From assembly GCA_964349555.1 (NCBI GenBank), contig CAYGGK010000001.1:120330-184329 (forward strand): 64,000 nucleotides of DNA. Reading direction: 5' to 3'. The translations under genes were made by a program, and so were the position numbers. The stretch's first letter is position 1; every line of letters begins with the position of its first letter. The notes beneath the pieces are model-generated. The model was given only the letters and a program-made list of their open reading frames with translations, was not told the DNA's origin and did no database searches. Source of the DNA: an uncultured Candidatus Saccharibacteria bacterium (GTDB lineage Bacteria > Patescibacteriota > Minisyncoccia > Phycocordibacterales > Phycocordibacteraceae). Shown piece after piece: positions 9,313-63,668 of this stretch.

Positions 9313-9349
9313 GTCCGCGTCTCTGTGCTTGCCCGCCCGCCCAGTGCAC

Positions 9350-9392
9350 GCACAACTCAGCCCCGCCGTTTTAGGAGACATTGTAAAACGGC
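9350..9392. terminator. Hairpin between convergent murF and SET gene
   Basis: agccccgccgtttta…taaaacggcggggct forms a ~15-bp stem. Confidence 0.5.
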
Positions 9393-9411
9393 GGGGCTGG
9401 CTCCCTACGCT

Positions 9412-9813
9412 CTATGACTTACGCTTTATGCCCCGCTTTTTTAAATCTTTCTCGGCTTCAAACTCTAAATAATTTTGTGTTAGTTCCTCGCCCTTCTTTA
9501 TATCTCGTGCCGCAACTAGGTGCGCTTCGGTAAAGTTTTTGTCCTGCGTTACGATCGCCTCGTAGGAGTGGTTGATAAAGTGCGTAACATCAAAATCAAC
9601 GTGCCACTTTTGGCTTGGTTCGTCAAAAAATCCCCAATACTGTATTTCGCGCCTTTCCTTTTCGTCGAGTGAATCAAACTGTTCTGGAGTTAGGTTCACA
9701 TCAAGAAGCGGACTTTGGGTGTAGATGAGTGTCCCTGCCGGTATATTTTCGTCAGCGAACATGCCAACGCCGTGATGCTCTGATTTATCCAGTTTGTACT
9801 TGATGTGTATCAT
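9412..9813 (-). CDS. SET-domain protein (putative protein lysine methyltransferase)
   Basis: GVGMFA…IPAGTLI, an NHS(Y) pseudo-knot region (FINHSYEA) and an ELTQNY post-SET-like motif. Start taken at MIHIKYK. Confidence 0.55.
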   Translation of the reverse strand: MIHIKYKLDKSEHHGVGMFADENIPAGTLIYTQSPLLDVNLTPEQFDSLDEKERREIQYWGFFDEPSQKWHVDFDVTHFINHSYEAIVTQDKNFTEAHLVAARDIKKGEELTQNYLEFEAEKDLKKRGIKRKS

Positions 9814-9817
9814 ACTG

Positions 9818-10405
9818 CTATTTTCTAGTTTGTTTGCGCCACACGAGCATTCCGACAAAAGCGAGGTTTGCGAGAACGAGCGACGCTGGATAGAGCGCGG
9901 TTGTCCAAGTAAAACTCTCAAGCGCAAACAAACTGACGGCGAACTTCAAGCCGGAAAGCCCGTATGTCCAGCCATTCTCTGTTTCGGGGTTAAAAAATGC
10001 TTTGCGGAATGTCGGCACAAAAGCAACGGCATCAATAATCGTGATGATTATAACCGACCAGAGTGGATTGCCGGTGAAATACCAAATCGGGACAGTGAAC
10101 AGGGCGCTTGTAAAAAATATCCAGTCGTTTTTCGTTATAAATACCCGAGATGACGCTCCAAGGCCGACAGCCGCAAAACCGAAACTGCAAAGCGCGGTAA
10201 CGCCCGTAACCCACGCACCCGCGCCGCCGCCTTCGGTTATTTGCGCGACGAACGCTATTGCGGTCAAAAGTCCCCAGACGAACCAGCTGAATGCGTGCGG
10301 TTTGACCTTGCCTTGCAAAATCCCGCGCACATAAAACACATAACCGAACAGACCGAGCGCGACGGCTATGCCGCCTAATATTTCTTGCGTAGTGAATATA
10401 TCCAC
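9818..10405 (-). CDS. Hypothetical polytopic membrane protein
   Basis: Five to six hydrophobic helices, with a GTG start. It sits 4 nt upstream of the SET gene. Confidence 0.45.
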   Translation of the reverse strand: MDIFTTQEILGGIAVALGLFGYVFYVRGILQGKVKPHAFSWFVWGLLTAIAFVAQITEGGGAGAWVTGVTALCSFGFAAVGLGASSRVFITKNDWIFFTSALFTVPIWYFTGNPLWSVIIITIIDAVAFVPTFRKAFFNPETENGWTYGLSGLKFAVSLFALESFTWTTALYPASLVLANLAFVGMLVWRKQTRK

Positions 10406-10429
10406 AACTTCATTTTAGCAGTCTTCTTA

Positions 10430-10531
10430 ACCGATTTGTACTGGCGACACATCGTTGAGGCGCTCCTTGCCAACCCCTCCGACGCGTCCCTCCTCGTTCG
10501 CCAAGAACGCGAGTGGAAACGCAAGGGGTGA
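10430..10531 (+). repeat. Copy B of the murF 3' coding terminus
   Basis: In frame it encodes …DLYWRHIVEALLANPSDASLLVRQEREWKRKG*. It is about 80% identical to murF 9231-9312 and about 95% identical to copy C. Confidence 0.85.
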
Positions 10532-10616
10532 GGACTCCTAACCTACGCGGGAACGGCTCACATGGGAAGAAATGAGCCGTTCAGTGCAAATACTGAAAGG
10601 TACGGAGCGGGCTCCC

Positions 10617-11132
10617 TTATGAGAAACTTATAGCGGTTTTTATCTTTCCAACCAACTCCTCCACGCTCATATTGCTTGTATCAATAAGAACTGAACCGAG
10701 CCGCTCTTTTTTTAGTGCATCGGCCTTTTCCCACATCTCACCTACCCGCTCACGCGTAAGAAGACTTCCGGGCCGGTAGCCGCGTTCGTCCGCTCGCTTT
10801 TGCACGGTGTATTTATCGGCAAACAACAGAAATTCATATACATCGGCACCATGCGCTCGTCCGGCTTCAATCAGTGAATCAACCGTCTCTGATTGTGATA
10901 TTGCTTTGTCGATAATGACGTCCTGTCCCAATTTCAAGTGATGTCCGACGGTTTCGGCCGCTTTCTGGTATGAAATCTGAAGGCTCTCCGCTCGTCGTTC
11001 TTTGTAGTCCGGCACCGATCTTCGAATCTCATCAATATCGAGAAGCACAGAGTTCGGCATGTCCGCATGTAAAAGCTTTGAAATTGTCGATTTTCCTACT
11101 CCGGGCGGGCCATTAAGGATTATGAGTTTCAT
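10617..11132 (-). CDS. P-loop (AAA-type) small-molecule kinase-like protein
   Basis: Walker A ILNGPPGVGKST. At 171 aa it is in the size range of shikimate/gluconate-kinase-like or zeta-like NTPases. Confidence 0.5.
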   Translation of the reverse strand: MKLIILNGPPGVGKSTISKLLHADMPNSVLLDIDEIRRSVPDYKERRAESLQISYQKAAETVGHHLKLGQDVIIDKAISQSETVDSLIEAGRAHGADVYEFLLFADKYTVQKRADERGYRPGSLLTRERVGEMWEKADALKKERLGSVLIDTSNMSVEELVGKIKTAISFS

Positions 11133-11212
11133 AACGCATTATTCCGGCTTAAAGGCCTTTTTTCTTTCTGATACAAGGGATTTACGAGCGCGTAAATCTT
11201 TATTACTCATAT

Positions 11213-11620
11213 TCATTTCGGCGCCGTCTTGAACTGCGGCCAGTGGTCACAGATATCATAGTACGCACCCTTATCCTTCGTGAAAATGTGTTGCGCCGAT
11301 TTTATTCTAGCTTTCTCATCAAGTAGCCCGAGCAAAACGTAAACACGTGCATAGCCTTTTCTATCCCAAGTTATGGACGCCCCGCAGTTGCCGCAGAAGG
11401 TGCGAGTCGTGTTAGAGGATGATTTATACGACAGCAGTTTTTTCGTTCGGTTTATCTTGAACGAATCGCGAAGTGCGCCGACGAACGCGCCGTACATGCC
11501 GTAGTTCTTGCGGCACTGCGAACAGTGGCAAAACCACACGTCATCGAGCGAGCCGGTAAACGAAAATTTTATCGCGCCGCAGCCGCAGGAACCGCGATGC
11601 GTTTTTACCGTTGTCGTCAT
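11213..11620 (-). CDS. GFA/CENP-V family zinc-binding protein
   Basis: Cys clusters GSCGCG, CHCSQCRK and CGNCG. Start taken at MTTTVKTHRG. Confidence 0.6.
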   Translation of the reverse strand: MTTTVKTHRGSCGCGAIKFSFTGSLDDVWFCHCSQCRKNYGMYGAFVGALRDSFKINRTKKLLSYKSSSNTTRTFCGNCGASITWDRKGYARVYVLLGLLDEKARIKSAQHIFTKDKGAYYDICDHWPQFKTAPK

Positions 11621-11645
11621 GTCTTGAGTATAGCGGATTGCCATC

Positions 11646-11746
11646 CCGATTTGTACTGGCGACACATCGTTGAGGCGCTCCTTGCCAACCCATCCGACGC
11701 CTCGCTCCTCGTTCGCCAAGAACGCGAGTGGAAACGCAGATTATAA
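11646..11746 (+). repeat. Copy C of the murF 3' coding terminus
   Basis: Encodes …DLYWRHIVEALLANPSDASLLVRQEREWKRRL*. Confidence 0.85.
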
Positions 11747-15930: not shown

Positions 15931-15955
15931 ATGAAGGGTTTACGAAACCTTTCAT
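15931..15955. repeat. REP-like 25-bp hairpin
   Basis: atgaagggtttacgaaacctttcat: an 11-bp stem with one mismatch and a 3-nt loop. Confidence 0.7.
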
Positions 15956-16635
15956 TCCAAAACTAGTTTCGTCATCTTGCTATCATACTCGGCATCGCGA
16001 AGGTATTCGATAAGTGAGTCGCGGTAATCACTGAGCGATTTTTTGAAAAATGAAGTTGTGAGTACGGAAGGGAAGTTCTTCTTACCGACGTAGTCGAGGT
16101 AGCTGCTCCATCGGTATGAATCAAGATAATTCAACGCTTTACTTACACTCCCAATCCCACCCTTGCTACGCACACGCCATTCTCGTGCTTCTTTAAGATA
16201 ATCAAGAGGATTGAGATGAAGGTAGTGCAGGATGTAGAGGAAGTGCGGTTCCCGTTCGATCAAAATTTTCTTCGTACGACCCTGGAAAAGAGTTCCCTGA
16301 CGCTCATATCGTTCGTTGAAATAGTTTGCATAACCAACATTTAATTTACGAAGAAATAAACTAATACCACCCTCGATTCGCTCAGAAAGTAGAAGATGAT
16401 AGTGATTCTTCATGAGAACCCACCCATGAATATCCACCAACAACTTTCGTGCTTTCCTAAATGAAGGGTTTACGAAATCCCTCACGCCTGAAGAGTCAAA
16501 GAGACGCCAAAGATTATCGGCGGGAGCGGAATCGTTAAACTCATAGAGATCATGTACGAAACGTGCGTAGTCTTGGGTATCGAGGAACAAGTCACGGCCA
16601 TCAACCCCGCGGTTTAGTACATGCCACAGCTCCAT
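15952..16635 (-). mobile_element. IS200/RAYT-type Y1 (HUH) transposase
   Basis: WHVLNRG, the HYHLLLS HUH motif, GTLFQGR, YLHLNP and RWSSY. It is flanked by REP-like hairpins. Confidence 0.7.
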
Positions 16636-16650
16636 ACCTTTCCAGTATAC

Positions 16651-16675
16651 ATGAAAGGTTTACGAAACCTTTCAT
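16651..16675. repeat. REP-like perfect 25-bp hairpin
   Basis: atgaaaggtttacgaaacctttcat. A half-copy lies at 16461-16480 inside the transposase CDS. Confidence 0.7.
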
Positions 16676-22644: not shown

Positions 22645-24342
22645 TCAAAGATTCTCTTTATTTTCTTTTCTTCCAAGTTCTTTAATAATTATTTCCACTA
22701 AGTCCGGGTGGTAGTGTTCGGCCTCATGTCCTCTTGACTTCTGTTTTTCAAACCACCCCGGGTTAGACACCCTATATTTCTCCGCAAAAGATATTATTGT
22801 AGAACCGTCTGCCTTAACAGCACGCCTAAGACTCTTCGCACTTTCCCACCCATCTTTCTTTCCCGGCGTTTCGTTAAAATGTTCTACCATTTTTTCCACT
22901 AAGTCCGGGTGGTAGTGCTCGGCTTTTTGGCTTCCTGACTTCTGTATTTCAAACCACTCCGGGTTAGATACCCTGTATCTCTCCGCAAAAAATTTTATGT
23001 TACGATGAGCTGCCTTAACAACACGCATAAGACCACTTGCGCTTTCCCACCCCTCTTTCTTTCCCGGCGTTTCGTTAAAATGTTCTACTATTTCTTTCAC
23101 TAAATCCGGGTGGTAGTGTTCGGCCTCATGTCCTCTTGACTTCTGTTTTTCAAACCACTCCGGGTTAGATACCCTGTATCTCTCCGCAAAAGATTTTATT
23201 TTACGAAGGTCTGCCTTAACAATAGGTATAAGACTCTTCGCACTTTCCCACCCATCTTTCTTTCCCGGCGTTTCGTTAAAATGTTCTACCATTTTTTCCA
23301 CTAAGTCCGGGTGGTAGTGTTCGGCTTCTACACTTCCCGACTTCTGTCTTTCAAACCACCCCGGGTTAGACACCCTATATTTCTCCGCAAAAGATATTAT
23401 TGTATGACCACTTGCCTTAAAAATATGCCTAAGACTTCTCGAACTTTCCCACCCCTCTTTCTTTTTTGGTACCTCTTTTATGTGTTCAAAATCTGATTTT
23501 GGGACGTTTGGTTTTTTATCGTCATTAACATCGAAATTTTCGGTTAAATACGTAAGCATACGTTCACGCCATTTGCTGTTTTGTCGTAGCACGCTACCAA
23601 TGGCAGGGTCTTCTTCTATATATTTCTTGTATTCGTCTTTGTCTGTCGTATCCAATCTCTCTATACTGATTACTTTTTGTAAAATTTTGTCTCTATCAAA
23701 TATAAAACTCGCGTTACCTTCTTCTTCGCAGATATACACCACTCGGTTTAACTCGGGTATTTCTACCCTGAAGTACGGATAACGCCGCATCATATTATCT
23801 GTAGTTTCTCCCTTTATAATTTTAATATCATCCTCTGTGGTGTCCTCGGCAGGGTCGTTTATGTATATATGAAGGTCATTTTGAAGGATATACATAAGAG
23901 TAGTCAATCTTGGTATGAGGTTCTTCTCTTCTAATCCCTTACTGCTTCCGGGGACGATGGGGTTATTTTCTTTGGAGGGGGGAACAAATACTTCTTTTGA
24001 TACGCCAGTCATTCTCGCTATGTTCCTTTCTAAGTCGTATATAGATTCTTTTCTTTTTGAAATAGCGTCTAGAGTATCGGTTACTGACTGCAATCCTAGA
24101 TACCCCAGAGCGGCATCTTCCAGTTCTTTTCCTATATAAGTCGTTCCGGGATTTTTTTCTTTATATTCAGAAGTTGCTTTAGACACAATGAGAATCAACG
24201 TGTCCACTGCCTCATCGTAGAAAGTATGTACGTTATCTGGGTTTATACTTGTGTGTAGGAGGTTGTCATACTCAACCTTAAGCGAGTTTTTTAAAGATTC
24301 AGGACGGGCTCTGTATTCTTTACCTGATAAACGACCCTCCAT
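22645..24342 (-). CDS. Hypothetical protein with four C-terminal 67-aa tandem repeats
   Basis: 201-bp DNA repeats across about 22690-23493 encode K(K/E)GWES…SFAEKYRVSNP(G/E)WFEKQKS…AEHYHPDLVEKMVEHFNETPGK four times. The ~300-aa N-terminal domain is unique. The gene is AT-rich compared with its neighbours. Confidence 0.6.
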   Translation of the reverse strand: MEGRLSGKEYRARPESLKNSLKVEYDNLLHTSINPDNVHTFYDEAVDTLILIVSKATSEYKEKNPGTTYIGKELEDAALGYLGLQSVTDTLDAISKRKESIYDLERNIARMTGVSKEVFVPPSKENNPIVPGSSKGLEEKNLIPRLTTLMYILQNDLHIYINDPAEDTTEDDIKIIKGETTDNMMRRYPYFRVEIPELNRVVYICEEEGNASFIFDRDKILQKVISIERLDTTDKDEYKKYIEEDPAIGSVLRQNSKWRERMLTYLTENFDVNDDKKPNVPKSDFEHIKEVPKKKEGWESSRSLRHIFKASGHTIISFAEKYRVSNPGWFERQKSGSVEAEHYHPDLVEKMVEHFNETPGKKDGWESAKSLIPIVKADLRKIKSFAERYRVSNPEWFEKQKSRGHEAEHYHPDLVKEIVEHFNETPGKKEGWESASGLMRVVKAAHRNIKFFAERYRVSNPEWFEIQKSGSQKAEHYHPDLVEKMVEHFNETPGKKDGWESAKSLRRAVKADGSTIISFAEKYRVSNPGWFEKQKSRGHEAEHYHPDLVEIIIKELGRKENKENL

Positions 24343-38356: not shown

Positions 38357-39319
38357 CTATAATGCCACGCCAATAGCGCGGCGCACTTCTTCCATCTTCG
38401 CTTCGCTCACGGCGCGCGCCTCCTTCTTCCCTCTCGCGAGGACGTCGTCAACAACGCTGTGGTCATCGGTAAGTTCTTCATACTTCGCGCGCATGGGCGC
38501 GAGATAGCGATCGAGATCTTCTATGAGTTTCTCTTTAAGCGCCTTGTAATTGCCCGCGTTACTACCATATATCGTAGCGAGTTCCTCTTCGCTCCGGACG
38601 AGTTTGTGAATCGCGTACACGTTTTCAGGACGACTACCAGACGAATCCGTCACGATACTCATCACACACCTCGCGAGATCAATGTGCGAAGCGAAGAGTG
38701 GAATACCATTTCCATAACTCTTGCTCATTTTACGGCCATCGATGCCGGGAACGATAGCGACCTCGGGCATGATGTGCGGCTCGGGGAGTTTGAAAATATC
38801 GGTCTTAAAAATACGGTTAAATTTTTCCGCAGTGTCGCGCGCGTATTCCACATGTTGTTTTTGATCCTGACCCACGGGCACAATGGCCGCATCATAAAGG
38901 AGAATGTCAGCCGCCATGAGCATCGGGTAATTGAACGTGCCGACGGACACCTCCTCTCCTTTCGCGGTGGCGTCTTTATAGGCATGTGCGCGCTGGAGGT
39001 ACGGCATGGTGGTAATCGTGTCAAAAATCCAAGCAAGTTCGGTATGTGCCGGCACGTCCGACTGTTTGAAAAGAACCACGTCGTTCGGATCAAGACCGAT
39101 AGCGAGATATGCCATAACACAGTCTCGTATGAGCTTCTGCATCGTTTGTGCGTCTTGAATGAAGTTAAGGGTATGATAATCTGCCACGAAAATGTAGGCC
39201 TTATAGGTACCGGTGTTTAAAAGGTCGATCGCCGGTTTCATCGCGCCAAAGTAGTTACCAATATGAATGTCACCGGTTGGTTTTATGCCAGTGAGAAGGA
39301 CAGATTTTCGGCCGTTCAT
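38357..39319 (-). CDS. trpS: Tryptophanyl-tRNA synthetase
   Basis: GIKPTGDIHIGNY and KMSKSYGN. Confidence 0.85.
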   Translation of the reverse strand: MNGRKSVLLTGIKPTGDIHIGNYFGAMKPAIDLLNTGTYKAYIFVADYHTLNFIQDAQTMQKLIRDCVMAYLAIGLDPNDVVLFKQSDVPAHTELAWIFDTITTMPYLQRAHAYKDATAKGEEVSVGTFNYPMLMAADILLYDAAIVPVGQDQKQHVEYARDTAEKFNRIFKTDIFKLPEPHIMPEVAIVPGIDGRKMSKSYGNGIPLFASHIDLARCVMSIVTDSSGSRPENVYAIHKLVRSEEELATIYGSNAGNYKALKEKLIEDLDRYLAPMRAKYEELTDDHSVVDDVLARGKKEARAVSEAKMEEVRRAIGVAL

Positions 39320-39469
39320 GATAGATACCATATCATAAAATTATTCTTTCAAACACACTTGTTGACGTTTGGCGCCGGTCAAAGTATATTCAGCACCAGA
39401 GAGAGTTTCCAGTAAACTGTGCCGCAGATTCCGCGGTATGAACAACGCTCAACATTGGGAGGATAGAAA

Positions 39470-39886
39470 ATGGAGTCGGAACACAAGATACGCCTTCGGA
39501 CAGAAACCCATGTTAGATTTTGGCATGATGATGAAATGGTCAGCACGGAACGGTCTAGTGGTGACCTTAAGAATCTTGTCATTCCGGACGACGTCTTCGC
39601 CATCCAGTTCTTTGATATCGGCTCCTGCACCGTGAGCCTCTGCGGGCAGTTCATGAGGCTCACTAGTGAAGAATTCGACGTGTCCCCGCGGCTCTACGTT
39701 AATGGGAGGATCCTTACACTTGAGGAGTTCAAGACTCAACTACCAGACGAGTATGACGAGTTCCTCAGAAAAGCATACCCTGGCAATTATTATAGGGTGG
39801 TCCTCTGCAGTAGTGGTCAGTGGCTACCGTTTTGCGAGGATGACAGGATTTGTTCAGTAGACTCAAGGCTCGCTAAGACGGACTAG
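39470..39886 (+). CDS. Hypothetical protein
   Basis: 138-aa ORF with no recognisable motif. A terminator hairpin follows at about 39915-39942. Confidence 0.35.
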   Translation: MESEHKIRLRTETHVRFWHDDEMVSTERSSGDLKNLVIPDDVFAIQFFDIGSCTVSLCGQFMRLTSEEFDVSPRLYVNGRILTLEEFKTQLPDEYDEFLRKAYPGNYYRVVLCSSGQWLPFCEDDRICSVDSRLAKTD

Positions 39887-39948
39887 ACAGAAAACGTGGC
39901 AACGTACATTTATGGGCTCCGCGCAAAACCCGCGGAGCTCTAACTTTT

Positions 39949-40551
39949 TCAATCACTGGAATTATGCTTCATCGCCTTTTTGTGTTGTTTCTCCTTCCAT
40001 CTCTTGAATGGAATACCCAAGCCAATCTTAAACAGCTTATTAAGAACTGGCATGATTCTTTTCATGGCCGGAGAAAGGATTGGATAATGGGGACTTGTGG
40101 GTTGATTCTCCAAAAATTGAAGCCATTCTTTAGGCAAGCTATGCTCCACAGCTCCTTCAAGAAGAATGTTCATATATCTTTTAGAGGGCCTTAAATGCTT
40201 GATGCCGGTATTCTCTGACCAAAAAACGTGCGCGGTTTTTAGTCCACTTCGTGTTCCCAATACCTCAAGATTAAGATTTTGGTATTCTCCTCCGCCCTCC
40301 ATTTTGTTAAGTATACTTATCTCATTCTGCGTCATGTGATAAAGCACCCCGTAGATTTTACTACTATCGTGTTTTTCGACATTGGCAAAAGAAGGCTCGA
40401 TAAGCGGTATTCCTGGATGGTCAAACACGAGCCTGTAGCCGTTAAGCTCCGCGGGCTCGGAAGAACGAGGGCGCATTCCTCGACTCTCGAGAAATATCTT
40501 TGAATTCATGTTCGCTCCAAACGCGAAATACCAGAAAGGATCAGACGTCAT
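39949..40551 (-). CDS. Gamma-glutamyl cyclotransferase (AIG2/GGCT-like)
   Basis: YFAFGANM motif. Start taken at MTSDPF so that it does not overlap the tRNA. Confidence 0.55.
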   Translation of the reverse strand: MTSDPFWYFAFGANMNSKIFLESRGMRPRSSEPAELNGYRLVFDHPGIPLIEPSFANVEKHDSSKIYGVLYHMTQNEISILNKMEGGGEYQNLNLEVLGTRSGLKTAHVFWSENTGIKHLRPSKRYMNILLEGAVEHSLPKEWLQFLENQPTSPHYPILSPAMKRIMPVLNKLFKIGLGIPFKRWKEKQHKKAMKHNSSD

Positions 40552-40559
40552 ACTTTTTG

Positions 40560-40642
40560 TGCGCCGGGTTGGATTCGAACCAACGAAGACCGAAATCAAG
40601 GCGTTTACAGCGCCTCCCCGTTGACCACTTGGGTACCGACGC
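40560..40642 (-). tRNA. tRNA-Tyr (anticodon GUA), long variable arm
   Basis: Folded by hand into an 83-nt structure. Acceptor GCGTCGG/CCGGCGC with one G·U pair, anticodon loop CTGTAAA, T-loop TTCGAAT. Confidence 0.65.
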
Positions 40643-40650
40643 GCACCCCA

Positions 40651-41280
40651 TCATCCTATCATTTTTAGTCGATATTCGTCTATCCAACGAATGATTTGCT
40701 CGAAGAATTTCTTATCCGAATAGCGAATGTGCACAAGCCCGTGGACCATACGCGGCCCGCGCCAACTATGCGTCATGGAGGCTTTCTTGATGTAAGGTTT
40801 TGTAAAGTGATTGATTGACAACTTGAGAAGTTTGCACCAAAAGCGCTTCAGATTTTGGATACTTTGTCCCTCGTATGCGTACAGATGCAGTCGAATTCTC
40901 TTTTGATCTATCCCACATACTTCAGAAAGGAATTTCCAAAAAATAAGTACCATGTCTGGATCTGAATTTGCGAAGTCAACCGTCCCTCCTCTTGCTTTAT
41001 AGCCTTCAGCCCAGTACAACATAATCGCCGCTATCTTGAGTTGTTCCTGCTCACTCGTTAACTTCTGTTTCAATTCATATGAAAGAGGCTTCGACTCAAA
41101 TCGAATGCGGTTGGTCTCCTGCGCGGAACGACGAGACACTTTGAGTTTGCGAAGAGTGTAATAGGCCGCGTGAATACTAATACCAAAATGATTGGCCATT
41201 TGTTGTGCACTTAGTCCGTTTCGATATAAGCGAGCCGCTTCTTTTTGCTGTTCCAGTGGAAGCGCCATTTTGACAGACAT
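40651..41280 (-). CDS. HTH-domain protein with LAGLIDADG-like region (possible free-standing homing endonuclease)
   Basis: N-terminal HTH (LSAQQMANHFGISIHAAYYTLRK). A LAGLIDADG-like IMLYWAEGYK…VDFANSD sits mid-protein. AT-rich. Confidence 0.35.
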   Translation of the reverse strand: MSVKMALPLEQQKEAARLYRNGLSAQQMANHFGISIHAAYYTLRKLKVSRRSAQETNRIRFESKPLSYELKQKLTSEQEQLKIAAIMLYWAEGYKARGGTVDFANSDPDMVLIFWKFLSEVCGIDQKRIRLHLYAYEGQSIQNLKRFWCKLLKLSINHFTKPYIKKASMTHSWRGPRMVHGLVHIRYSDKKFFEQIIRWIDEYRLKMIG

Positions 41281-41341
41281 ACTAGAATTATCTCAAATAG
41301 GAGTTGAGAGTCAAACGGACTTATACACAGAAATGTTTACT

Positions 41342-41397
41342 TTAGTACAAGAATGAGGACGCCTTGTTTGCCCTTGCGCACGAGCGCGTAGCCGCCG
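41342..41397 (-). repeat. Diverged duplicate of the tyrS 3' coding terminus
   Basis: Read on the - strand it encodes VGGYALVRKGKQGVLILVLK*. This is identical to the TyrRS C-terminus at the protein level and different at the nucleotide level. Confidence 0.8.
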
Positions 41398-41497
41398 ACG
41401 CAATGCGCCCACTATAGCGGATGCGGCACTTTTTTCAAAATCAAGAACCATGTAAGTTCATAAATGTCTTTCCTCAGTTCCCAAAACCTTCCCATGG

Positions 41498-41541
41498 AAC
41501 TATCCCCAATTTTACGCTATAGCGTTATTTATGTGCTGGTG
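41498..41541. repeat. Palindromic element (core TACGCTATAGCGT)
   Basis: tccccaattttacgctatagcgttatttatgtgctggtg. The first 22 nt are the exact reverse complement of 62964-62985. Confidence 0.7.
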
Positions 41542-41563
41542 CCGACTGGTAGGATTCATAAAT

Positions 41564-42145
41564 ATGAAGAAGGTCGAGGCTGAGGCGAAGGTGAAGCGAC
41601 GGAGACGTGATTTGCACAATATCATTTTAGCAACGATTGCTGTCGCCGGGATTCTTACTGTCGCAGCCGTAGCGCCAAACGCAATGCGCCTCCTTAAAAC
41701 GACCGGCATAGACGCCCGTCTTCGGTATAAAACAAAACGGGTGCTTGGGAGATTAAAGCAGAAAGGTGAAATCGAGTTCGTTGAGAAGGATGGCAAGACC
41801 CTTGTACGGCTTACCGAGCGTGGCGAACAAGCGCTCGCGCTACATGCCGAGCGGCTAAGGCTTGCGGGCGAAAGGCCCAAGAAATGGGATCAACGCTACC
41901 GGCTGGTGATGTTTGATGTCCCAGAAAAGCGTAAGCGGACTCGAGATCTCTTGCGTCGAGAAATGAGAGAGGTCGGTTTCCTTCGTATACAGGACAGCGC
42001 GTGGCTCTACCCTTACGACTGTGAAGAGTTTGTTGCGCTTTTGAAAGCGGACTTGCATATCGGGAAGGATGTACTCTACGCCGTCATTGAATCAATTGAA
42101 AACGATGCGTGGATCCGAAAACATTTTAATCTTCGTACAGATTAA
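41564..42145 (+). CDS. Winged-helix + PaaX_C/Cas2-fold domain protein
   Basis: N-terminal TM helix, a wHTH (…LKQKGEIEFVEKDGKTLVRLTERGEQAL…) and a C-terminal YRLVMFDVPEK…GFLRIQDSAWLY β-α-β core. Confidence 0.5.
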   Translation: MKKVEAEAKVKRRRRDLHNIILATIAVAGILTVAAVAPNAMRLLKTTGIDARLRYKTKRVLGRLKQKGEIEFVEKDGKTLVRLTERGEQALALHAERLRLAGERPKKWDQRYRLVMFDVPEKRKRTRDLLRREMREVGFLRIQDSAWLYPYDCEEFVALLKADLHIGKDVLYAVIESIENDAWIRKHFNLRTD

Positions 42146-42165
42146 GACTAACCGCTTCCCGACAT

Positions 42166-42203
42166 CAGCACAATAATTACGCTATAGCGTAATTATTGTG
42201 CTG
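42166..42203. repeat. 38-bp perfect palindrome
   Basis: cagcacaataattacgctatagcgtaattattgtgctg. It shares a TACGCTATAGCGTA core with 41498-41541 and 62958-62985. Confidence 0.8.
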
Positions 42204-42264
42204 GTAGGGGAGGTAAATTTTGGGCGGTTGATTGGGCGGTCGGTATGTGGGTACTTATTATTTT

Positions 42265-43518
42265 TTATTTCAAAACGAGGATGAGGACGCCTTGTTTGCC
42301 CTTGCGCACGAGCGCATAGCCGCCGGAAAGATCGCCGGGGTAAATTTTTTGGTCGGGATTCTCAATCGTCTGGTCTGAAAGAGTAATGCCCTTTCCTTCT
42401 ATCAGCCGGCGAGCGGCGCTTTTAGAAGTTGCAAGGCCACCAACGACAAGCGCGTCAGCGAGCGGGGAGCCGTCAGCGACGTCTTTCTTTGTGAGAACTA
42501 CGGAAGGCGCTTCGGCGAGTGCCACCGCGAGCGCTTCGCGGGAGAGCCCGCTAAACGGCGTGTCGCCGAAGAGGGCGTCAGTCGCGGCCGCGACCTGCGC
42601 GGTCGCGGCGGGCCCGTGAACTATCTCGGTCACAAGTCGAGCGAGCGTCTCCTGGGCTTGCCTCTCGCCTGGGTTCCGTTGATGGAGCTCCATAAGGGCG
42701 CCAATTTCAATAAGCGACAGGAAGGTATACACCTTCAGATAATTTTCAATACCCTCGTCCGGAAGGTTTATCCAAAATTGGTAGAAACGGAAAGGGGACG
42801 TCTTCTTCGCGTCAAGCCAAACGGCGTTCCCTTCGCTCTTGCCGAACTTTTTCCCGCTCGCATCGGTGACGAGTGGAAATGTGAACGCAAATACTTCTTT
42901 CCCGGCACGTTTTCGGATTAAATCGACACCAGAGAGGATGTTTGTCCACTGGTCGGAACCGCCGATCTGAAGGTCCACGCCGTACTTTTCGTTAAGCGTC
43001 AGGTAATCATAACCTTGCAAAAGCGCGTAGGAGAACTCGGTAAAGGAGATGCTCTCGTCTGGTGTGTCGAGACGTTTCTTTATAGTCTCGCGTTTGATGA
43101 GGTCGTTGACTGTGAAATGTTTACCGATATCGCGTAGGAACGGCAATAGCTTAACCTTGGAGAGCCACTCCGCATTGTCTACCATCTTGAAAGGAATCTT
43201 GCCGAGGATCTTTTTCAGCTGTATTTGAAGCGCGCGGGTATTGGCGACGACCGTTTTTTCATCCAGCATCACCCGCTCCCCCACCTCTTTAGGGTCGCCG
43301 ATCATGCCGGTACCACCGCCCACAAGAAAGACAAGTTTATTACCAGTGTCGCCGAGTCGCCTCATGAGGAGCATGAAAACGAGGTGTCCTATGTGGGCTG
43401 AATCGGCCGTTGGATCAATACCAATATATATAGTCCTTGGCGCGGCTAGTATCTTTTCTAAATCAGTAGACGAGTGTACTGCCAGCCCGCGCGCCTTCAG
43501 CTCTTCAGCTAGAGTCAT
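42265..43518 (-). CDS. tyrS: Tyrosyl-tRNA synthetase
   Basis: GIDPTADSAHIGH (HIGH), KFGKS and a C-terminal S4 domain. Confidence 0.85.
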   Translation of the reverse strand: MTLAEELKARGLAVHSSTDLEKILAAPRTIYIGIDPTADSAHIGHLVFMLLMRRLGDTGNKLVFLVGGGTGMIGDPKEVGERVMLDEKTVVANTRALQIQLKKILGKIPFKMVDNAEWLSKVKLLPFLRDIGKHFTVNDLIKRETIKKRLDTPDESISFTEFSYALLQGYDYLTLNEKYGVDLQIGGSDQWTNILSGVDLIRKRAGKEVFAFTFPLVTDASGKKFGKSEGNAVWLDAKKTSPFRFYQFWINLPDEGIENYLKVYTFLSLIEIGALMELHQRNPGERQAQETLARLVTEIVHGPAATAQVAAATDALFGDTPFSGLSREALAVALAEAPSVVLTKKDVADGSPLADALVVGGLATSKSAARRLIEGKGITLSDQTIENPDQKIYPGDLSGGYALVRKGKQGVLILVLK

Positions 43519-47022: not shown

Positions 47023-47856
47023 TCATCTTGCGATAAGAAGGGCGGTTTCGAGTGAGGTCACTTCAACGATCTTGGATGCTAGTGGGGTCTTAAGGTCCCT
47101 CGCGACGGCCTCATAAGCATCCCAGAACTCGTACACGTTGAATAAGTCGCCGTGCTTCTCCGCCCGATCTTTTACTAGGGTGATGAGGCGAACTTTTCTT
47201 TTAGCAACCAAAACAGCACTGGCGATAAAGATCTTATAGGAAGTAACGCGGTAGTCGCGGTCGGTTCGGAACGCGAGCTCAGAGAACTGGTGCCTCCACT
47301 TCTCACTTTCTTTAAGCAACATGCAATACTGACCGCGTTGGCCCTCGAGCAAGGAACGGATTTTTGCGTCCCTTGGCGGGTTGAGGGAGAGATCCCTGAA
47401 GATGGACAACTCCTCCTTGCGGCGCCTCTCCGCGTCCTGCCTTTCGCGTTTTCCCCGCTCCTGTTTCTTGGTAAGAATTGCTCTTTTCGCCTCACCTGAA
47501 GAAGTGAACCTCAGGTCCTTTTCAAAAAACTTGAGGAGCTTATCGAAGAGCGATTGCAGATTGCTCGTTGCAACAGTTGAATCAGTGGAACTGCCGACCA
47601 AGTACTGTTTGTTGCTTACTTCATTTTCAACGTAGTATTTGACCACCGCATCATAGAGGGACCTCGCCCTCTCAGTACTTAGGTGATACGTGTTGTCTAT
47701 ACCAGTAGCGGTGAACTTCCCCCTCCAGGCAATGTTCCCGGGAAAAAGTTTCTTGAGCTGAGCGATATCACTGACCGATAGACCCGCGGATACCTTAACG
47801 CGAGTCCCTGCCCGAATTCCTTCCGGCCGAACTTTAAAGCAGAACTGTACTTCCAT
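47023..47856 (-). CDS. Hypothetical protein
   Basis: 277 aa, Lys/Arg-rich in the middle, no recognisable domain. Its promoter, leader and first 11 codons are duplicated at 48476-48590. Confidence 0.45.
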   Translation of the reverse strand: MEVQFCFKVRPEGIRAGTRVKVSAGLSVSDIAQLKKLFPGNIAWRGKFTATGIDNTYHLSTERARSLYDAVVKYYVENEVSNKQYLVGSSTDSTVATSNLQSLFDKLLKFFEKDLRFTSSGEAKRAILTKKQERGKRERQDAERRRKEELSIFRDLSLNPPRDAKIRSLLEGQRGQYCMLLKESEKWRHQFSELAFRTDRDYRVTSYKIFIASAVLVAKRKVRLITLVKDRAEKHGDLFNVYEFWDAYEAVARDLKTPLASKIVEVTSLETALLIAR

Positions 47857-47937
47857 GTTCGTTACCCCCTATGTGTTTGTTGAGAACTAGACTTTCTTCC
47901 AAAGTTAATATTACTTAAAAATCAAGAGACGTCAAAT
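47824..47937 (-). promoter_or_regulatory. Promoter/leader/5'-coding repeat, copy 1
   Basis: On the - strand: TTGACG, a 16-nt spacer, TAATAT, then about 45 nt, the RBS agggggt and ATG GAA GTA CAG TTC TGC TTT AAA GTT CGG CCG GA. Confidence 0.6.
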
Positions 47938-48267: not shown

Positions 48268-48475
48268 TTCTCCTTCTCATGGGTTACTTCCCAACATCGG
48301 TTGGAAAGGCACGGTTTAATTCTCTAAAAGCATAGCACAGGAGTTGAAAAATTGTGCAAGCAAAATTAGTAGGTCTTTTGGCAAATTTTCATCAACATAG
48401 ACTAGAACTTCTCTTTGAATTCCGCATCCTTCGGCCCTTCTGCAGGGCCGTCAGGACCTCCATTTTCACCTCCGG

Positions 48476-48590
48476 TCGAACTTTAAAGCAGAACTGTACC
48501 GTCATGTTCGTTGCTCCCTCTGTGTTTGTGTTTGTTGGGAACTAGTCTCTTCCGAAGTTGATATTACTTAAAAGTTAAGAAACGTCAAAC
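48476..48590 (-). promoter_or_regulatory. Promoter/leader/5'-coding repeat, copy 2
   Basis: Same TTGACG-16-TAATAT promoter and leader. It encodes MTVQFCFKVRPE, then diverges and stops after 37 codons. Confidence 0.6.
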
Positions 48591-48614
48591 CCCGCGAGGC
48601 GAAGCCTCGCGGGG
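48586..48614 (-). terminator. dnaK terminator hairpin
   Basis: ccccgcgaggc-gaa-gcctcgcgggg. Confidence 0.5.
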
Positions 48615-48640
48615 TTTGTGTTGAAATCAAACTTCCCTTC

Positions 48641-62235: not shown

Positions 62236-62952
62236 ATGTCTGACGCATTTATGCCGAACAAAGGAAAACGCCTGGACGCTGTTGCGCTCGGCGTGAGCTA
62301 TTTGCGCCTCCCCATTAAAACGCGCCTTATTAACGTCGGTGACGACTTGACGCAACTTCTTGAAGAATATGTGCGACCGCACCTTAAAAACGGAGACATT
62401 CTTTTTATCAGCGAGAAGATTGTCTGCATCACGCAGGGACGCATCGTACGCCGCGATGATGTACGGACTTCGTGGCTCGCGCGGTTTCTCTCGACAAAGG
62501 TGCGCAACTACGCGGGAACGCCTCAATTCCGCGGGCTCGGCCACGGCACCGCGCCGGCGATGCAACTGCTTATTGAAGAAGCGGGATACCCACGCACCCT
62601 CTTCGCCGCCTTTGTTTCGGCGCTGACCCGCCCGCTCGGCATCAAGGGCGCGTTCTATTATCTGGTCGGTAAGCAAGCGAAGTCTATTGACTGCCCGATG
62701 TCGTGGACTATTGAACCATTTCAAGAATATGCAAAGCGAGCGCCCGCAGACCCTGACGGTGTCGCGAGAAAAATTAAAGAAGCATTCGGTGTAGAAACGG
62801 TTATCGTTGACGCGAATTACCGCGGAGCATTCTCGCTCGGCAAGTCAACGCGCAGCATATCGGAAAAACTCATACGCGAACTCCTCGCAGACAACCCCGC
62901 CGGCCAAGACAGCGAAATGACGCCTTTCTTCATCGTTCGCCGCCGACATTAG
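62236..62952 (+). CDS. CofE/F420-0:γ-glutamyl ligase-like protein
   Basis: …GDDLTQLLEE…GDILFISEKIVCITQGR… and …VETVIVDANYRG… resemble the F420 ligase fold. Confidence 0.45.
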   Translation: MSDAFMPNKGKRLDAVALGVSYLRLPIKTRLINVGDDLTQLLEEYVRPHLKNGDILFISEKIVCITQGRIVRRDDVRTSWLARFLSTKVRNYAGTPQFRGLGHGTAPAMQLLIEEAGYPRTLFAAFVSALTRPLGIKGAFYYLVGKQAKSIDCPMSWTIEPFQEYAKRAPADPDGVARKIKEAFGVETVIVDANYRGAFSLGKSTRSISEKLIRELLADNPAGQDSEMTPFFIVRRRH

Positions 62953-62957
62953 CACAT

Positions 62958-62985
62958 AAATGACGCTATAGCGTAAAATTGGGGA
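62958..62985. repeat. Third copy of the palindromic element
   Basis: tgacgctatagcgtaaaattgggga. Confidence 0.7.
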
Positions 62986-63032
62986 TAGTGCCTTGAAATG
63001 TTTTGGAGACTGAGAAATCGCATTCGCCGCAG

Positions 63033-63668
63033 TTAGGTTCGCGTGTCGGACTCTTTCCACTCGATGAGTCTCCCCGCCTTGAGCTCCATGGTGTCGGCCT
63101 TACGAACATGGCGCCAATTCCCCTTTGGAACAAGGTTGTAATGAGGGAGCACGCCCAAGGCCTCAACGATAGTTCTCACTCTTTCTTCAGAGGTTATCCA
63201 ATCGGTGCCGAAACGTTTTAAATTAAGCGGCCGCGAGTAACACTCAAGCGTCTTCTCCCCCGTTTTATTCAAGAACCATTCATGAAAATAAGAGAGCGCG
63301 AGCTCGCGGGGCGTACGATAGATTGGGTCGCGGAACCGTATCGTTGCGTGATTCGTCTTACTGATGGCACCCCAGAAACCGTCACGCTTGTAGAGCGCAA
63401 CAACATGGTCAACATCTCCCCTGCCGAGGCGCGCCGAGAGATTCATTATGAGCGGCGGCTCCCCATGGAGCAAAAGCGCGGCGGCGGCGAGTAAGGCGCC
63501 CTCTGTGCAATGTGCCTTCTTCTCCTTAAGAACTTGACGCACCGACATCTGTGTCTCGTCCTTTTTCTCCCAGTTCATCGGAATGCGGTCCAAAAAATCT
63601 TGTATCTTGATCGGCGTGGAGAGCTCTCGTAAAACACTCTCCTCGCTATGCGTCAGGCCAAACTTCAT
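63033..63668 (-). CDS. Transglutaminase-like cysteine peptidase superfamily protein
   Basis: Putative Cys (AHCTEGALLAAAALLLHG), His (DVDHVVALY) and Asp spaced as in papain-fold or lasso-B2-type enzymes. Confidence 0.35.
   Translation of the reverse strand: MKFGLTHSEESVLRELSTPIKIQDFLDRIPMNWEKKDETQMSVRQVLKEKKAHCTEGALLAAAALLLHGEPPLIMNLSARLGRGDVDHVVALYKRDGFWGAISKTNHATIRFRDPIYRTPRELALSYFHEWFLNKTGEKTLECYSRPLNLKRFGTDWITSEERVRTIVEALGVLPHYNLVPKGNWRHVRKADTMELKAGRLIEWKESDTRT

Follow-up and report, generated by a model that had tools for sequence, protein, structure and literature searches.

The stretch analysed here is a window of 64 kb; all coordinates are window positions, its lineage and locus are called W, and loci of relatives carry L-numbers. 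A small gene (41564..42145, + strand) lies in it in a neighbourhood of tyrS, trpS, tRNA-Tyr, an ABC transporter and dnaJ/dnaK. Its product, which we call mini-PaaX, has 193 amino acids and consists of a basic N-terminal helix, a winged helix and a Cas2-like PaaX_M domain. The ATG at 41564 is the probable true start; a 204-aa open reading frame from 41531 would begin inside a palindrome. The initial annotation had called the protein "wHTH/PaaX_C-like." The winged helix was indeed found, but the domain that goes with it is the Cas2-like PaaX_M (Pfam PF20803, E = 1.4e-16, 60.8 bits versus a cutoff of 24) and not PaaX_C, for which no Pfam match was obtained; the protein stops ~15 residues after PaaX_M. 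The Pfam Cas2 profile matched the 193-aa protein weakly and below its cutoff (E = 0.0064). More than 600 homologs, mostly of 193 aa, are present in Patescibacteria, and PaaX_M was precomputed for all 120 homologs listed. Since a search of the PDB sequences with the family profile gave nothing useful (best match uS8, E = 0.18), a fold search was needed. In the AF2 model (pLDDT 83), residues 33 to 83 form an H-H-H-beta-beta unit, and Foldseek returned E. coli PaaX (8a39) as its best PDB fold match, along with 3l09, 3kfw and many MarR/PadR winged helices. The match to 8a39 spans part of the 305-residue PaaX chain, with a TM score, normalised to the target, of 0.38.

Mini-PaaX thus shares with PaaX (E. 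coli, Pseudomonas phenylacetate catabolon) the N-terminal winged helix and the Cas2-like central domain, but is much shorter (193 versus ~305 to 316 aa), has a basic N-terminal helix and lacks the effector-binding PaaX_C domain and, therefore, any evident means of sensing phenylacetyl-CoA. Also, no paa genes are in the gene list of the W locus. Conservation in the family is highest in the Cas2-like half, which contains invariant acidic residues, among them those of an FD(I/V) motif that we take to be the counterpart of the beta-1 aspartate of Cas2. Between paralogs, the N-terminal DNA-binding half is 48 to 54% identical and the Cas2-like half 64 to 73%. Some members of the family carry the NCBI name "CRISPR-associated endonuclease Cas2," which our data suggest is misleading. 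The ferredoxin-like Cas2 fold is common to both, but the Cas2-like part of mini-PaaX is fused to a winged helix, there is no cas1 among the genes called around the locus and no adjoining repeat array, and the palindromes described below are single sites, not arrays.

Three copies of a palindrome are found in the window: one upstream of the mini-PaaX gene, one downstream of it and one between two convergent genes, a placement that stands as first described. They had been reported as a 14-bp perfect palindrome occurring three times. On re-extraction, the exact 14-mer TACGCTATAGCGTA was found once (42178-42191), but its 12-mer core ACGCTATAGCGT is exact at 41514, 42179 and 62963; the 14-mer versions at 41513 and 62962 each have one outer base off. 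When up to two mismatches were allowed, the 14-mer gave 3 matches in the window, with 0.06 expected, and none of 100 shuffles attained 3; the motif is thus above chance frequency in the window. The upstream site (site 1; 41499..41540, + strand; left half ACTATCCCCAATTTTACGCTA, right half TAGCGTTATTTATGTGCTGGT) has its dyad between 41519 and 41520, and its end is 25 nt from the ATG at 41564. It is a hybrid, with the left arm TATCCCC, the commonest type of the family, and the right arm GTGCTG, the type of the W clade; the orthologs L006 and L008 share this hybrid layout. It scored 38.3 bits with the family PWM, versus a maximum of 8.3 in shuffled windows. The downstream site (site 2; 42166..42203, CAGCACAATAATTACGCTATAGCGTAATTATTGTGCTG, dyad between 42184 and 42185, 29.4 bits) is located 20 nt past the mini-PaaX stop codon and 60 nt from the tyrS stop. 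That it is a perfect palindrome of 38 bp was borne out, and it is the strongest palindrome of the 64 kb, with a score of 19, while all shuffled windows stayed below 10.

The third copy (site 3; 62948..62989, - strand; + strand halves ATTAGCACATAAATGACGCTA and TAGCGTAAAATTGGGGATAGT; 39.2 bits) is a hybrid site, too, the reverse complement of site 1, and lies between the convergent genes 62236-62952(+) and 63033-63668(-). It was the one solo site in the 64-kb window in the family PWM scan. The identity of copy 1 to the reverse complement of copy 3, given before as 22 nt, is real but longer: 27 bases match exactly (41499-41525 and 62963-62989), and the likeness extends over ~100 nt at 77% or over 75 nt at 84%. 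A common tail, TTAT(T/G)TGCTGGT, had also been noted; it exists but was one base out of register, the tails in register being GCGTTATTTATGTGCTGGT and GCGTAATTATTGTGCTGGT. The tail adjoining site 1 (41467..41498, - strand) is common to the insert that carries site 3 and is restricted to the W lineage, not being kept in L006 and L008. A candidate stem in it (AGTTCC...GGAACT in copy 1) is, by eye, not preserved in copy 3. Small open reading frames reading out of sites 1 and 3 (27 and 12 aa) resemble each other only through the likeness of the DNA.

To what extent the sites belong to the gene can be seen across the family. In all of the 30 loci examined (29 curated family loci and the independent locus L054), a pseudo-palindrome of 38 to 42 bp is present on both sides of the gene, upstream and downstream. 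In 286 kb, 66 sites of at least 15 bits were found, of which 59 flank a family gene and 7 are elsewhere; shuffled sequence contained none. The family PWM and the site list came from loci picked by palindromy and are therefore partly circular, with L054 and the shuffles as the only independent checks. The two sites of a gene also covary: an upstream site and its own downstream site are alike at 32.8 of 42 positions, compared to 21.6 of 42 between loci, 19 of 29 upstream sites find their best match in the downstream site of the same gene, and the observed mean was attained in none of 10,000 permutations. Paralogs within one genome carry different palindromes, sharing only 13 to 20 of 42 positions, and the variants of the recognition helix follow the arm types. 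The palindrome of the L002 type reads ATCAACAACTTCTGCTATAGCAAGAATTGTTGAT.

Information in the half-site peaks at positions 1 to 5 (the centre, T-R-G-C-R) and 14 to 19 (the arm, GGGATA-like). With the arms at ±14 to 19 from the dyad, the two arm hexamers are 26 bp apart. According to a review (PMC9493321), E. coli PaaX has the operator TGATTC-N27-GAATCA and acts on its own promoter as a repressor that blocks RNA polymerase. Both operators are thus inverted hexamers, with a gap of ~27 bp and a total of ~39 bp for PaaX and of 26 and 38 bp for mini-PaaX, a likeness in geometry only, since the sequences differ. The mini-PaaX sites differ further in having a conserved central box, of the GCTATAGC or GCCATGGC type, and the gene in having a second putative operator downstream; moreover, the hosts are Patescibacteria, some of whose genomes have at least two paralogs, each with its own arms. 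At +6 to +11 of the gene-proximal half, a -10 hexamer (TAnnnT) is present in 17 of 29 upstream sites but in only 1 of 29 downstream sites. Of the 17 loci with the hexamer upstream, 15 have a start codon that begins at ~+20, counted from the dyad, a spacing suggestive of a leaderless mRNA. The predicted -10 hexamer and the start codon lie inside the upstream site, as would suit a self-repressed promoter of the PaaX type. The initial annotation had listed an operator for the adjacent winged-helix protein as one of several possible roles, and this option is the best supported by the co-occurrence in 30 of 30 loci, the covariation, the PaaX-like geometry and the overlap with -10 region and start. 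We therefore regard the three palindromes as candidate operators that are probably cognate to an autoregulated mini-PaaX repressor encoded between copies 1 and 2.

If the sites were bound by another factor, or were bidirectional promoter modules, their link to the mini-PaaX family would be one of chance. Indeed, the TATCCCC arm of sites 1 and 3 has a TAAAAT at +6 to +11 that is directed away from the gene, a tRNA-Tyr gene is in that direction in L006 and L008, and different types of sites cluster in L042, where three different palindromes stand in tandem within 150 bp. However, the near absence of the -10 hexamer from downstream sites does not fit promoter modules, the sites follow the adjacent paralog and not the genome, and their geometry agrees with that of the operator of the homologous PaaX. 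A chance link is thus improbable.

The palindromes could also act as nucleic acid hairpins, for example, as bidirectional terminators or as stem-loops that stabilise RNA between convergent genes. RNA of copy 2 indeed folds into a 19-bp stem on either strand (-44 kcal/mol, z = -7.2), and copies 2 and 3 are located between convergent genes. However, copies 1 and 3 folded no better than shuffles (z = +0.15, +2.1, +1.8), a terminator scan was empty at every copy, and no copy has the G+C-rich stem followed by a T-tract that characterises intrinsic terminators, copy 2 being the only one that forms a strong hairpin. In addition, the upstream site ends at the start codon in 15 of 29 loci, and a leaderless mRNA would contain little of it. 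Symmetry breaks are concentrated in the spacer (positions 6 to 10), so that pairing is least preserved in the middle of the arm of the would-be stem, and G:T mismatches are not in excess (22 of 146); this is the pattern of protein sites and not of hairpins. Taken together, a function as a hairpin is very improbable. A known RNA family was not found either: an Rfam gathering scan of the window returned tRNAs only.

A recombination site tied to the insertion of a cassette at tyrS had also been among the roles proposed. The palindromes would then be crossover sites at which a site-specific recombinase excises, inverts or integrates the gene cassette, in connection with the duplication of the tyrS 3' end. 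Two like sites do bracket one gene, the tyrS-trpS interval is variable among relatives, and a 62-nt copy of the tyrS 3' end (41336..41397, - strand) is close by. This copy has 7 differences, all of them synonymous when both copies are translated. Next to it is a promoter-like block, TTGAAA-16-TATAGT (41411..41438, - strand), and then GCGTCGG, which equals the initial 7 nt of tRNA-Tyr; the block is outside the palindrome family, and the same block is found between tyrS and tRNA-Tyr in L043, L044 and L045. The 41411..41438 block also holds a CTATAG. We considered the 62-nt copy as a target duplication of the regulator cassette, but it is continuous with the promoter and the initial 7 nt of tRNA-Tyr and runs on into an HTH_20 gene. 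It thus came with the HTH_20 gene in a separate insertion into the 5' end of tRNA-Tyr. Nor do the palindromes mark the boundaries of the cassette in relatives, for they are ~60 nt inside each end of the W interval that is absent from gene-free relatives. Because the tyrS duplicate belongs to a separate insertion and the palindromes are off the ends of the interval, a tie between palindromes and the tyrS cassette is not supported. Furthermore, no recombinase gene was seen near the locus, and the orientation of the gene relative to its neighbours was constant in all orthologs seen, which gives no sign of inversion. Of the readings weighed here, we consider crossover sites the least probable. The orthologs hold their position beside tyrS in W, L006 and L008 and beside tRNA-Leu in L002 and L021. 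Integration linked to tRNA genes was rejected as a general feature, since only the W clade and the L002/L021 clade directly adjoin a tRNA gene; a phage or viral origin was rejected as well, there being no relatives on IMG/VR contigs.

Copy 3 has a different history. It is part of a 79-nt insert (62944..63022, - strand) that consists of site 3 and a tail of ~35 nt and is homologous to a stretch that takes in the 5' leader of the mini-PaaX gene and site 1 and reaches ~41467 (84% identity over 75 nt). The insert is flanked by 8-nt direct repeats, TTCGCCGC, at 62936..62943 and 63023..63030, and supplies the last codons (RRH and stop) of an F420-ligase-like gene. In L052 the insert is absent, and the two convergent genes overlap by 4 nt; by our reading of the sequences, removal of the insert and one repeat copy restores the overlapping stop codons. 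Copy 3 thus originated by insertion. A "MITE/REP-like selfish element" had been suggested before, and what holds of this is the 79-nt insert with its 8-bp direct repeat against an empty site, whereas the low copy number and the syntenic orthologs do not agree with it; the MITE-like part of the story survives weakly. Like a MITE, copy 3 is a short, non-coding, intergenic insert with an 8-nt target-site duplication. Unlike MITEs, it has no evident terminal inverted repeats (its ends, CCGACATT... and ...GAAATCG, agree at ~5 of 7 positions at best), only this one extra copy exists in the 64 kb, and it derives from the inside of a promoter region, whereas a deletion derivative would have retained the ends of its parent element.

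A selfish system of palindrome and gene like REP/RAYT (REPtrons) would go further: a Cas2-like nuclease would recognise the flanking palindromes and occasionally copy palindrome segments or the whole unit, with copy 3 as one of the products. As in REPtrons, two short, clade-specific palindromes bracket the gene, and a solo copy is seen between convergent genes. The insertion of copy 3 and the tandem in L042 would agree with this, as would the conservation of the Cas2-like half with its acidic residues. Moreover, the interval with the gene and both sites, which an imperfect 11-nt repeat (TTTTGAAATAA and TTTTGAAAAAA) delimits in W, is missing between tyrS and tRNA-Tyr in L043 to L045. However, the protein is not an HUH/Y1 (IS200-like) transposase, its only Pfam domain being PaaX_M, and PaaX employs the same fold for dimerisation. 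The palindromes are at very low copy number in the 64-kb window, the 286 kb and JGI data, not dispersed in many intergenic copies: only 7 of 66 sites do not flank a family gene, and the half-site pattern of the clade was found in only 2 contigs among 241 million JGI metagenome records. The genes are syntenic over long evolutionary distances, with orthologs across Kaiserbacteria and Wolfebacteria, and the sites have the bipartite information profile of a protein operator, with symmetry breaks where hairpin substrates would not be expected to have them. The insert shares no ends with a larger unit, and direct repeats of 7, 8 and 11 nt fit microhomology-mediated events better than a single transposase. 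A REP/RAYT-like system is thus unlikely. Somewhat less likely still is that winged-helix/Cas2-like proteins and their bracketing palindromes are an unrecognised class of elements of Patescibacteria. In function it would be the counterpart of REP/RAYT, with a nuclease of the Cas2 fold that recognises its own palindrome and now and then moves DNA carrying it; copy 3, with its 8-bp target duplication, would be a relic of one such move. If the selfish-element reading were true, a Cas2-fold protein would be added to the few enzymes known to disseminate palindromic repeats. The window has a REP/RAYT-like example of its own, a Y1_Tnp-like open reading frame (15952-16635, Pfam match to Y1_Tnp) flanked by 25-nt palindromes.

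If the palindromes are operators of mini-PaaX, a dimer would read the two arm hexamers, which are centred ~32 bp apart, and the central box (T-R-G-C-R on each side; ACGCTATAGCGT in W) may be contacted as well, perhaps by the basic N-terminal helix. Since the upstream site overlaps the -10 region and the start of its own gene, binding there would repress transcription of that gene, as PaaX does at the Px promoter. The downstream site, which is more symmetric and has no promoter, could serve as a further anchor point. It might close a repression loop of ~650 bp or, as a roadblock, stop transcription that enters from the neighbouring gene, which is usually convergent (by a heuristic call, in 14 of 29 loci, with 9 co-directional). 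Each paralog would have its own arm sequence, and copy 3 would be a displaced copy of the upstream site that may or may not remain in use. Several observations do not fit an operator easily. Some sites are perfect over 38 to 44 bp, including the spacer, which is more symmetry than a dimer requires; no promoter that the downstream site could control is obvious, and site 3 sits between two gene ends. The TATCCCC arm of sites 1 and 3 is unlike the GTGCTG of the clade itself, which can be accounted for only by assuming a second paralog or another function. The -10 assignment is weak in the W clade (TTATTT/TATTTA), where a consensus promoter scan at the sites gave nothing, and the insertion of copy 3 with a target duplication is the behaviour of a mobile element.

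We found nothing on the mini-PaaX family in the literature on PaaX, Cas2-like proteins and the palindromes and transcription factors of Patescibacteria. The layout, with sites on both sides of the gene and a different palindrome for each gene copy, is new for these tiny uncultured bacteria in that it has not been described. Patescibacteria have very small genomes with few recognisable regulators. For the mini-PaaX family, the analysis offers a predicted operator of 38 bp, a rule by which the site of each paralog may be found, i.e., by looking on both sides of its own gene, and pairs of protein and site that could be tested in vitro without culture.

The 14-mer TACGCTATAGCGTA, which the initial annotation had counted three times, is exact only at 42178, and the copies at 41513 and 62962 are each off by one outer base; the 12-mer ACGCTATAGCGT has three exact occurrences in the window. 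At chance frequency, 0.06 matches with at most two mismatches would be expected in the 64-kb window, but three were found, and none of 100 shuffled sequences gave three. The 38-bp perfect palindrome at 42166-42203 (copy 2) was borne out, and no other palindrome in the window is as strong. Copy 1 (41499-41540) is indeed the reverse complement of copy 3 (62948-62989, minus strand), with 27 exact bases in common instead of the 22 claimed, and their similarity extends over ~100 nt at 77% (84% over 75 nt). A weight matrix made from the palindromes that flank related genes (family matrix) detected exactly three sites in the 64 kb, with scores of 38.3, 29.4 and 39.2 bits; the next-best position had 12.7 bits, and the maximum in shuffled sequence was 8.3.

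Copies 1 and 2 lie upstream and downstream of a gene previously described as wHTH/PaaX_C-like. Homologs place its true start at ATG 41564, which gives a protein of 193 amino acids (mini-PaaX); the listed ORF start, 41531, falls within the palindrome. Pfam identified PaaX_M (E = 1.4e-16), the Cas2-like central domain of PaaX, and the winged helix was recovered in an AlphaFold2 model, but PaaX_C was not found. In the model (pLDDT 83), a long, basic helix at the N terminus precedes a winged helix and a ferredoxin-like domain; the closest folds in the PDB are E. coli PaaX (8a39) and PaaX-like regulators (3l09 and 3kfw). The family is large and has so far been seen only in Patescibacteria (Kaiserbacteria, Wolfebacteria and other Paceibacteria). 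Some members carry the NCBI label "CRISPR-associated endonuclease Cas2," but in contrast to Cas2 of CRISPR-Cas systems, mini-PaaX has no cas1 among the called genes around its locus and no repeat array adjoining its gene. No relatives were found on viral contigs.

We compared 29 non-redundant loci: the window locus, L002 (a paralog on the same contig, 64% identical), L006 and L008 (80% identical orthologs) and 25 loci from GTDB species genomes. A pseudo-palindrome of 38 to 42 bp just upstream of the gene and another just downstream were present in all 29, and in L054, a 30th locus kept out of matrix building, the two top scores in 7.1 kb bracket the gene. A threshold of 15 bits yielded 66 sites in 286 kb of collected DNA, 59 of them flanking a family gene, and no site in shuffled sequence. 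The upstream site of a locus agrees with its own downstream site at a mean of 32.8 of 42 positions, versus 21.6 of 42 for between-locus pairs; the own downstream site was the best match in 19 of 29 loci, and the observed mean was reached in 0 of 10,000 permutations. Paralogs in the same genome have differing palindromes, CAGCACAAT...ATTGTGCTG at the window locus and ATCAACAAC...GTTGTTGAT at L002, with 18 of 42 positions in common (20 and 13 in two further paralog pairs), and the paralogous proteins diverge mainly in the N-terminal DNA-binding half (48 to 54% identity, compared to 64 to 73% in the Cas2-like half). Predicted recognition-helix variants are associated with particular arm types, in groupings that are clades and hence non-independent observations. 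The sites follow the protein rather than the genome.

The symmetrised half-site profile of 58 sites has two blocks. Positions 1 to 5 from the dyad are T, A/G, G, C and G/A, the G at position 3 being invariant, and positions 14 to 19 are GGGATA in most clades and GTGCTG in the clade of the window locus. A hairpin is expected to be equally constrained at all stem positions and to tolerate G:U pairs, but symmetry breaks are concentrated at positions 6 to 10, an AT-rich spacer, and downstream sites show no enrichment of G:T mismatches (22 of 146). Copy 2 did fold well as RNA (-44 kcal/mol; z = -7.2), but it was the only copy to do so (z ≥ 0 for copies 1 and 3), and a T-tract is absent at all three copies; a hairpin or terminator is a weak explanation. 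The gap between the arm hexamers is 26 bp. The operator of E. coli PaaX, which shuts down its own promoter through RNA polymerase exclusion, is reported as TGATTC-N27-GAATCA (review PMC9493321). Thus, the family site has the geometry known for the homologous PaaX. Its anatomy points to a protein operator, with binding predicted from sequence.

TAnnnT (for example, TATAAT, TAGAAT or TATACT) is present at +6 to +11 in the gene-proximal half of 17 of 29 upstream sites but only 1 of 29 downstream sites. Since the start codon begins at ~+20 from the dyad in 15 of these 17 loci, the -10 box, the predicted transcript start and the ATG would all lie within the predicted operator, and the mRNA would be leaderless. 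In the clade of the window locus, the upstream site stops 21 to 28 nt short of the ATG, and its weaker -10 candidate (TTATTT/TATTTA) was not called by a generic promoter scan. Downstream sites are more symmetrical than upstream sites (16.0 versus 14.8 of 21 paired positions; Wilcoxon p = 0.02). By a simple ORF heuristic, the neighbour facing the downstream site is convergent in 14 of the 29 loci and co-directional in 9, with none close in 6; the mostly convergent neighbours argue against downstream sites usually being operators of a downstream promoter. The downstream site might be a second anchor, for a loop of ~650 bp or a roadblock, which is the least supported step of the proposed mechanism.

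Copies 1 and 3 are hybrids of a TATCCCC arm, the commonest type in the family, and the clade's own GTGCTG arm, and this hybrid is likewise kept upstream of the L006 and L008 orthologs. The TATCCCC side holds TAAAAT at +6 to +11, directed away from the gene, and in L006 and L008 a tRNA-Tyr gene is on the side toward which it points. The upstream site may act on two divergent promoters, or a second paralog may also use it. On a 2.7-kb JGI contig without a family gene (Ga0209211_10077190; L042), three differing family-type palindromes (the window type, a GTGCACC type and a TATCCA type) are arranged in tandem within 150 bp (1-152), upstream of the gene for a 495-aa membrane protein; hence, sites of differing predicted specificity can cluster. 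At 7413-7455 of L043, 55 nt ahead of trpS, a near-perfect palindrome with arms of the L002 type (ATCAACAACTTGT.GCTATAGC...) stands alone in a part of the genome that lacks a family gene.

Copy 3 lies between two convergent genes within a 79-nt insert (62944-63022) that has the 8-nt direct repeat TTCGCCGC on either side (62936 and 63023) and is absent in L052, a relative in which the F420-ligase-like gene converges on a homolog of the 211-aa gene (72% identity), with a 4-nt overlap (TTAG). The insert provides the final codons of the ligase-like gene (RRH, stop); reading both sequences, removal of the insert and one repeat copy leaves ...CGCAGTTAGGTTCGC, exactly the overlapping stops of L052. 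With 10 occurrences of the 8-mer on the two strands of the window, accidental flanking of the insert has an estimated chance of about one in a hundred. The insert, present in all assemblies of this strain, is 84% identical to a stretch that begins in the 5' leader of the wHTH gene, includes site 1 and ends in a ~35-nt tail specific to the window locus. By this sequence comparison, one duplicative insertion of a site-bearing segment took place. A short insertion with an 8-nt direct repeat resembles a MITE, but unlike in a MITE, no convincing terminal inverted repeats were found on the insert; neither of its ends is common to any larger unit. A REP/RAYT- or MITE-like element would explain copy 3 and the bracketing of the gene, but copy number is low, the genes are syntenic and the information profile resembles that of an operator, all of which contradict this reading and make it improbable. 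The orthologs in the window, L006 and L008 all adjoin tyrS, and in both L002 and L021 (Kaiserbacteria and Wolfebacteria) the ortholog comes after the same tRNA-Cys/Leu/Lys/Leu cluster, which argues against frequent mobility.

Elsewhere in the window, other palindromes, unrelated to the mini-PaaX sites, form a classical REP/RAYT layout: a 227-aa ORF (15952-16635, minus strand), with the HUH-like motif NHYHLLL and a Pfam match to Y1_Tnp that is borderline (IS200-like; E = 1e-4, 22.9 bits versus a cutoff of 23), is flanked by the 25-nt palindromes ATGAAAGGTTTCGTAAACCTTTCAT (15931-15955 and 16651-16675; related copy at 16458-16485). A direct repeat of ~115 nt (47822-47936 and 48471-48589; 88% identity, 650 nt apart) lies in non-coding DNA between a 277-aa ORF (47023-47856) and dnaK, and a strong G+C-rich hairpin (48586-48618) comes after its second copy. 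Four tandem copies with a 201-nt period (22688-23590; 64 to 90% identity) and three 116-nt repeats spaced by ~1217 nt (9189-11738) are probably repeated protein domains or paralogous genes.

In L043 to L045, relatives with ~82% identical tyrS and no regulator gene, the tyrS stop is followed by ~10 nt, ATCCGCTATAGTG and tRNA-Tyr. A promoter-like TTGAAA-16-TATAGT of tRNA-Tyr is located at 41411-41438 (minus strand) in the window and just past tyrS in these relatives, where the last two sense codons of tyrS make up the -35 TTGAAA; thus, tyrS and tRNA-Tyr are packed there, the gene end overlapping the promoter. The regulator gene and both palindromes fill the interval between tyrS stop and tRNA promoter, which is empty in L043 to L045 and is edged by an imperfect 11-nt repeat (TTTTGAAATAA, 42265-42275, and TTTTGAAAAAA, 41430-41440, read on the minus strand). 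The palindromes had been considered as cassette boundaries, but compared to L043 to L045 they are situated ~60 nt inside each interval end. The promoter block is retained in the window at 41398-41438, together with GCGTCGG, the 7 nt with which the tRNA begins, and is joined there to a 62-nt duplicate of the tyrS 3' end that has 7 differences, all synonymous; the HTH_20 gene follows and then the intact tRNA-Tyr, starting with the same GCGTCGG. The insertion inside the tRNA-Tyr 5' end (40643-41404), comprising the HTH_20 gene (40651-41280, minus strand) and the tyrS fragment, has GCGTCGG at both ends. The duplicate thus arrived with the HTH_20 gene, and the synonymous differences suggest recent import from another functional tyrS allele. 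A target duplication by the regulator cassette was ruled out for this duplicate by its fusion to the tRNA promoter, the 7 nt and the HTH_20 gene. With the duplicate belonging to the HTH_20 gene and the palindromes inside the interval ends, the proposed recombination site tied to a cassette at tyrS is a weak explanation. The tRNA-Tyr gene (40559-40642) was found by ARAGORN; an Rfam scan at gathering threshold reports just the other two tRNAs. The whole tyrS-trpS interval (38357-43518 in the window; also L008 and L043 to L045) varies; what genes it holds differs from one examined relative to the next (the regulator gene, a DHO dehydrogenase, three unknown ORFs, or a GGACT-like gene and a 138-aa ORF), and looks like a hot spot of gene gain and loss.

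The remaining proposal, an operator for the adjacent winged-helix protein, is the best explanation, given that the sites flank the gene, track the protein and have PaaX-operator geometry; binding is predicted. The palindromes are probably PaaX-type operators of an autoregulated PaaX homolog without an effector domain. Such a mechanism is in itself unsurprising; the value lies in testable protein/site pairs in uncultured bacteria. Moreover, the data suggest that the recurrent annotation of this family as "Cas2" is misleading.
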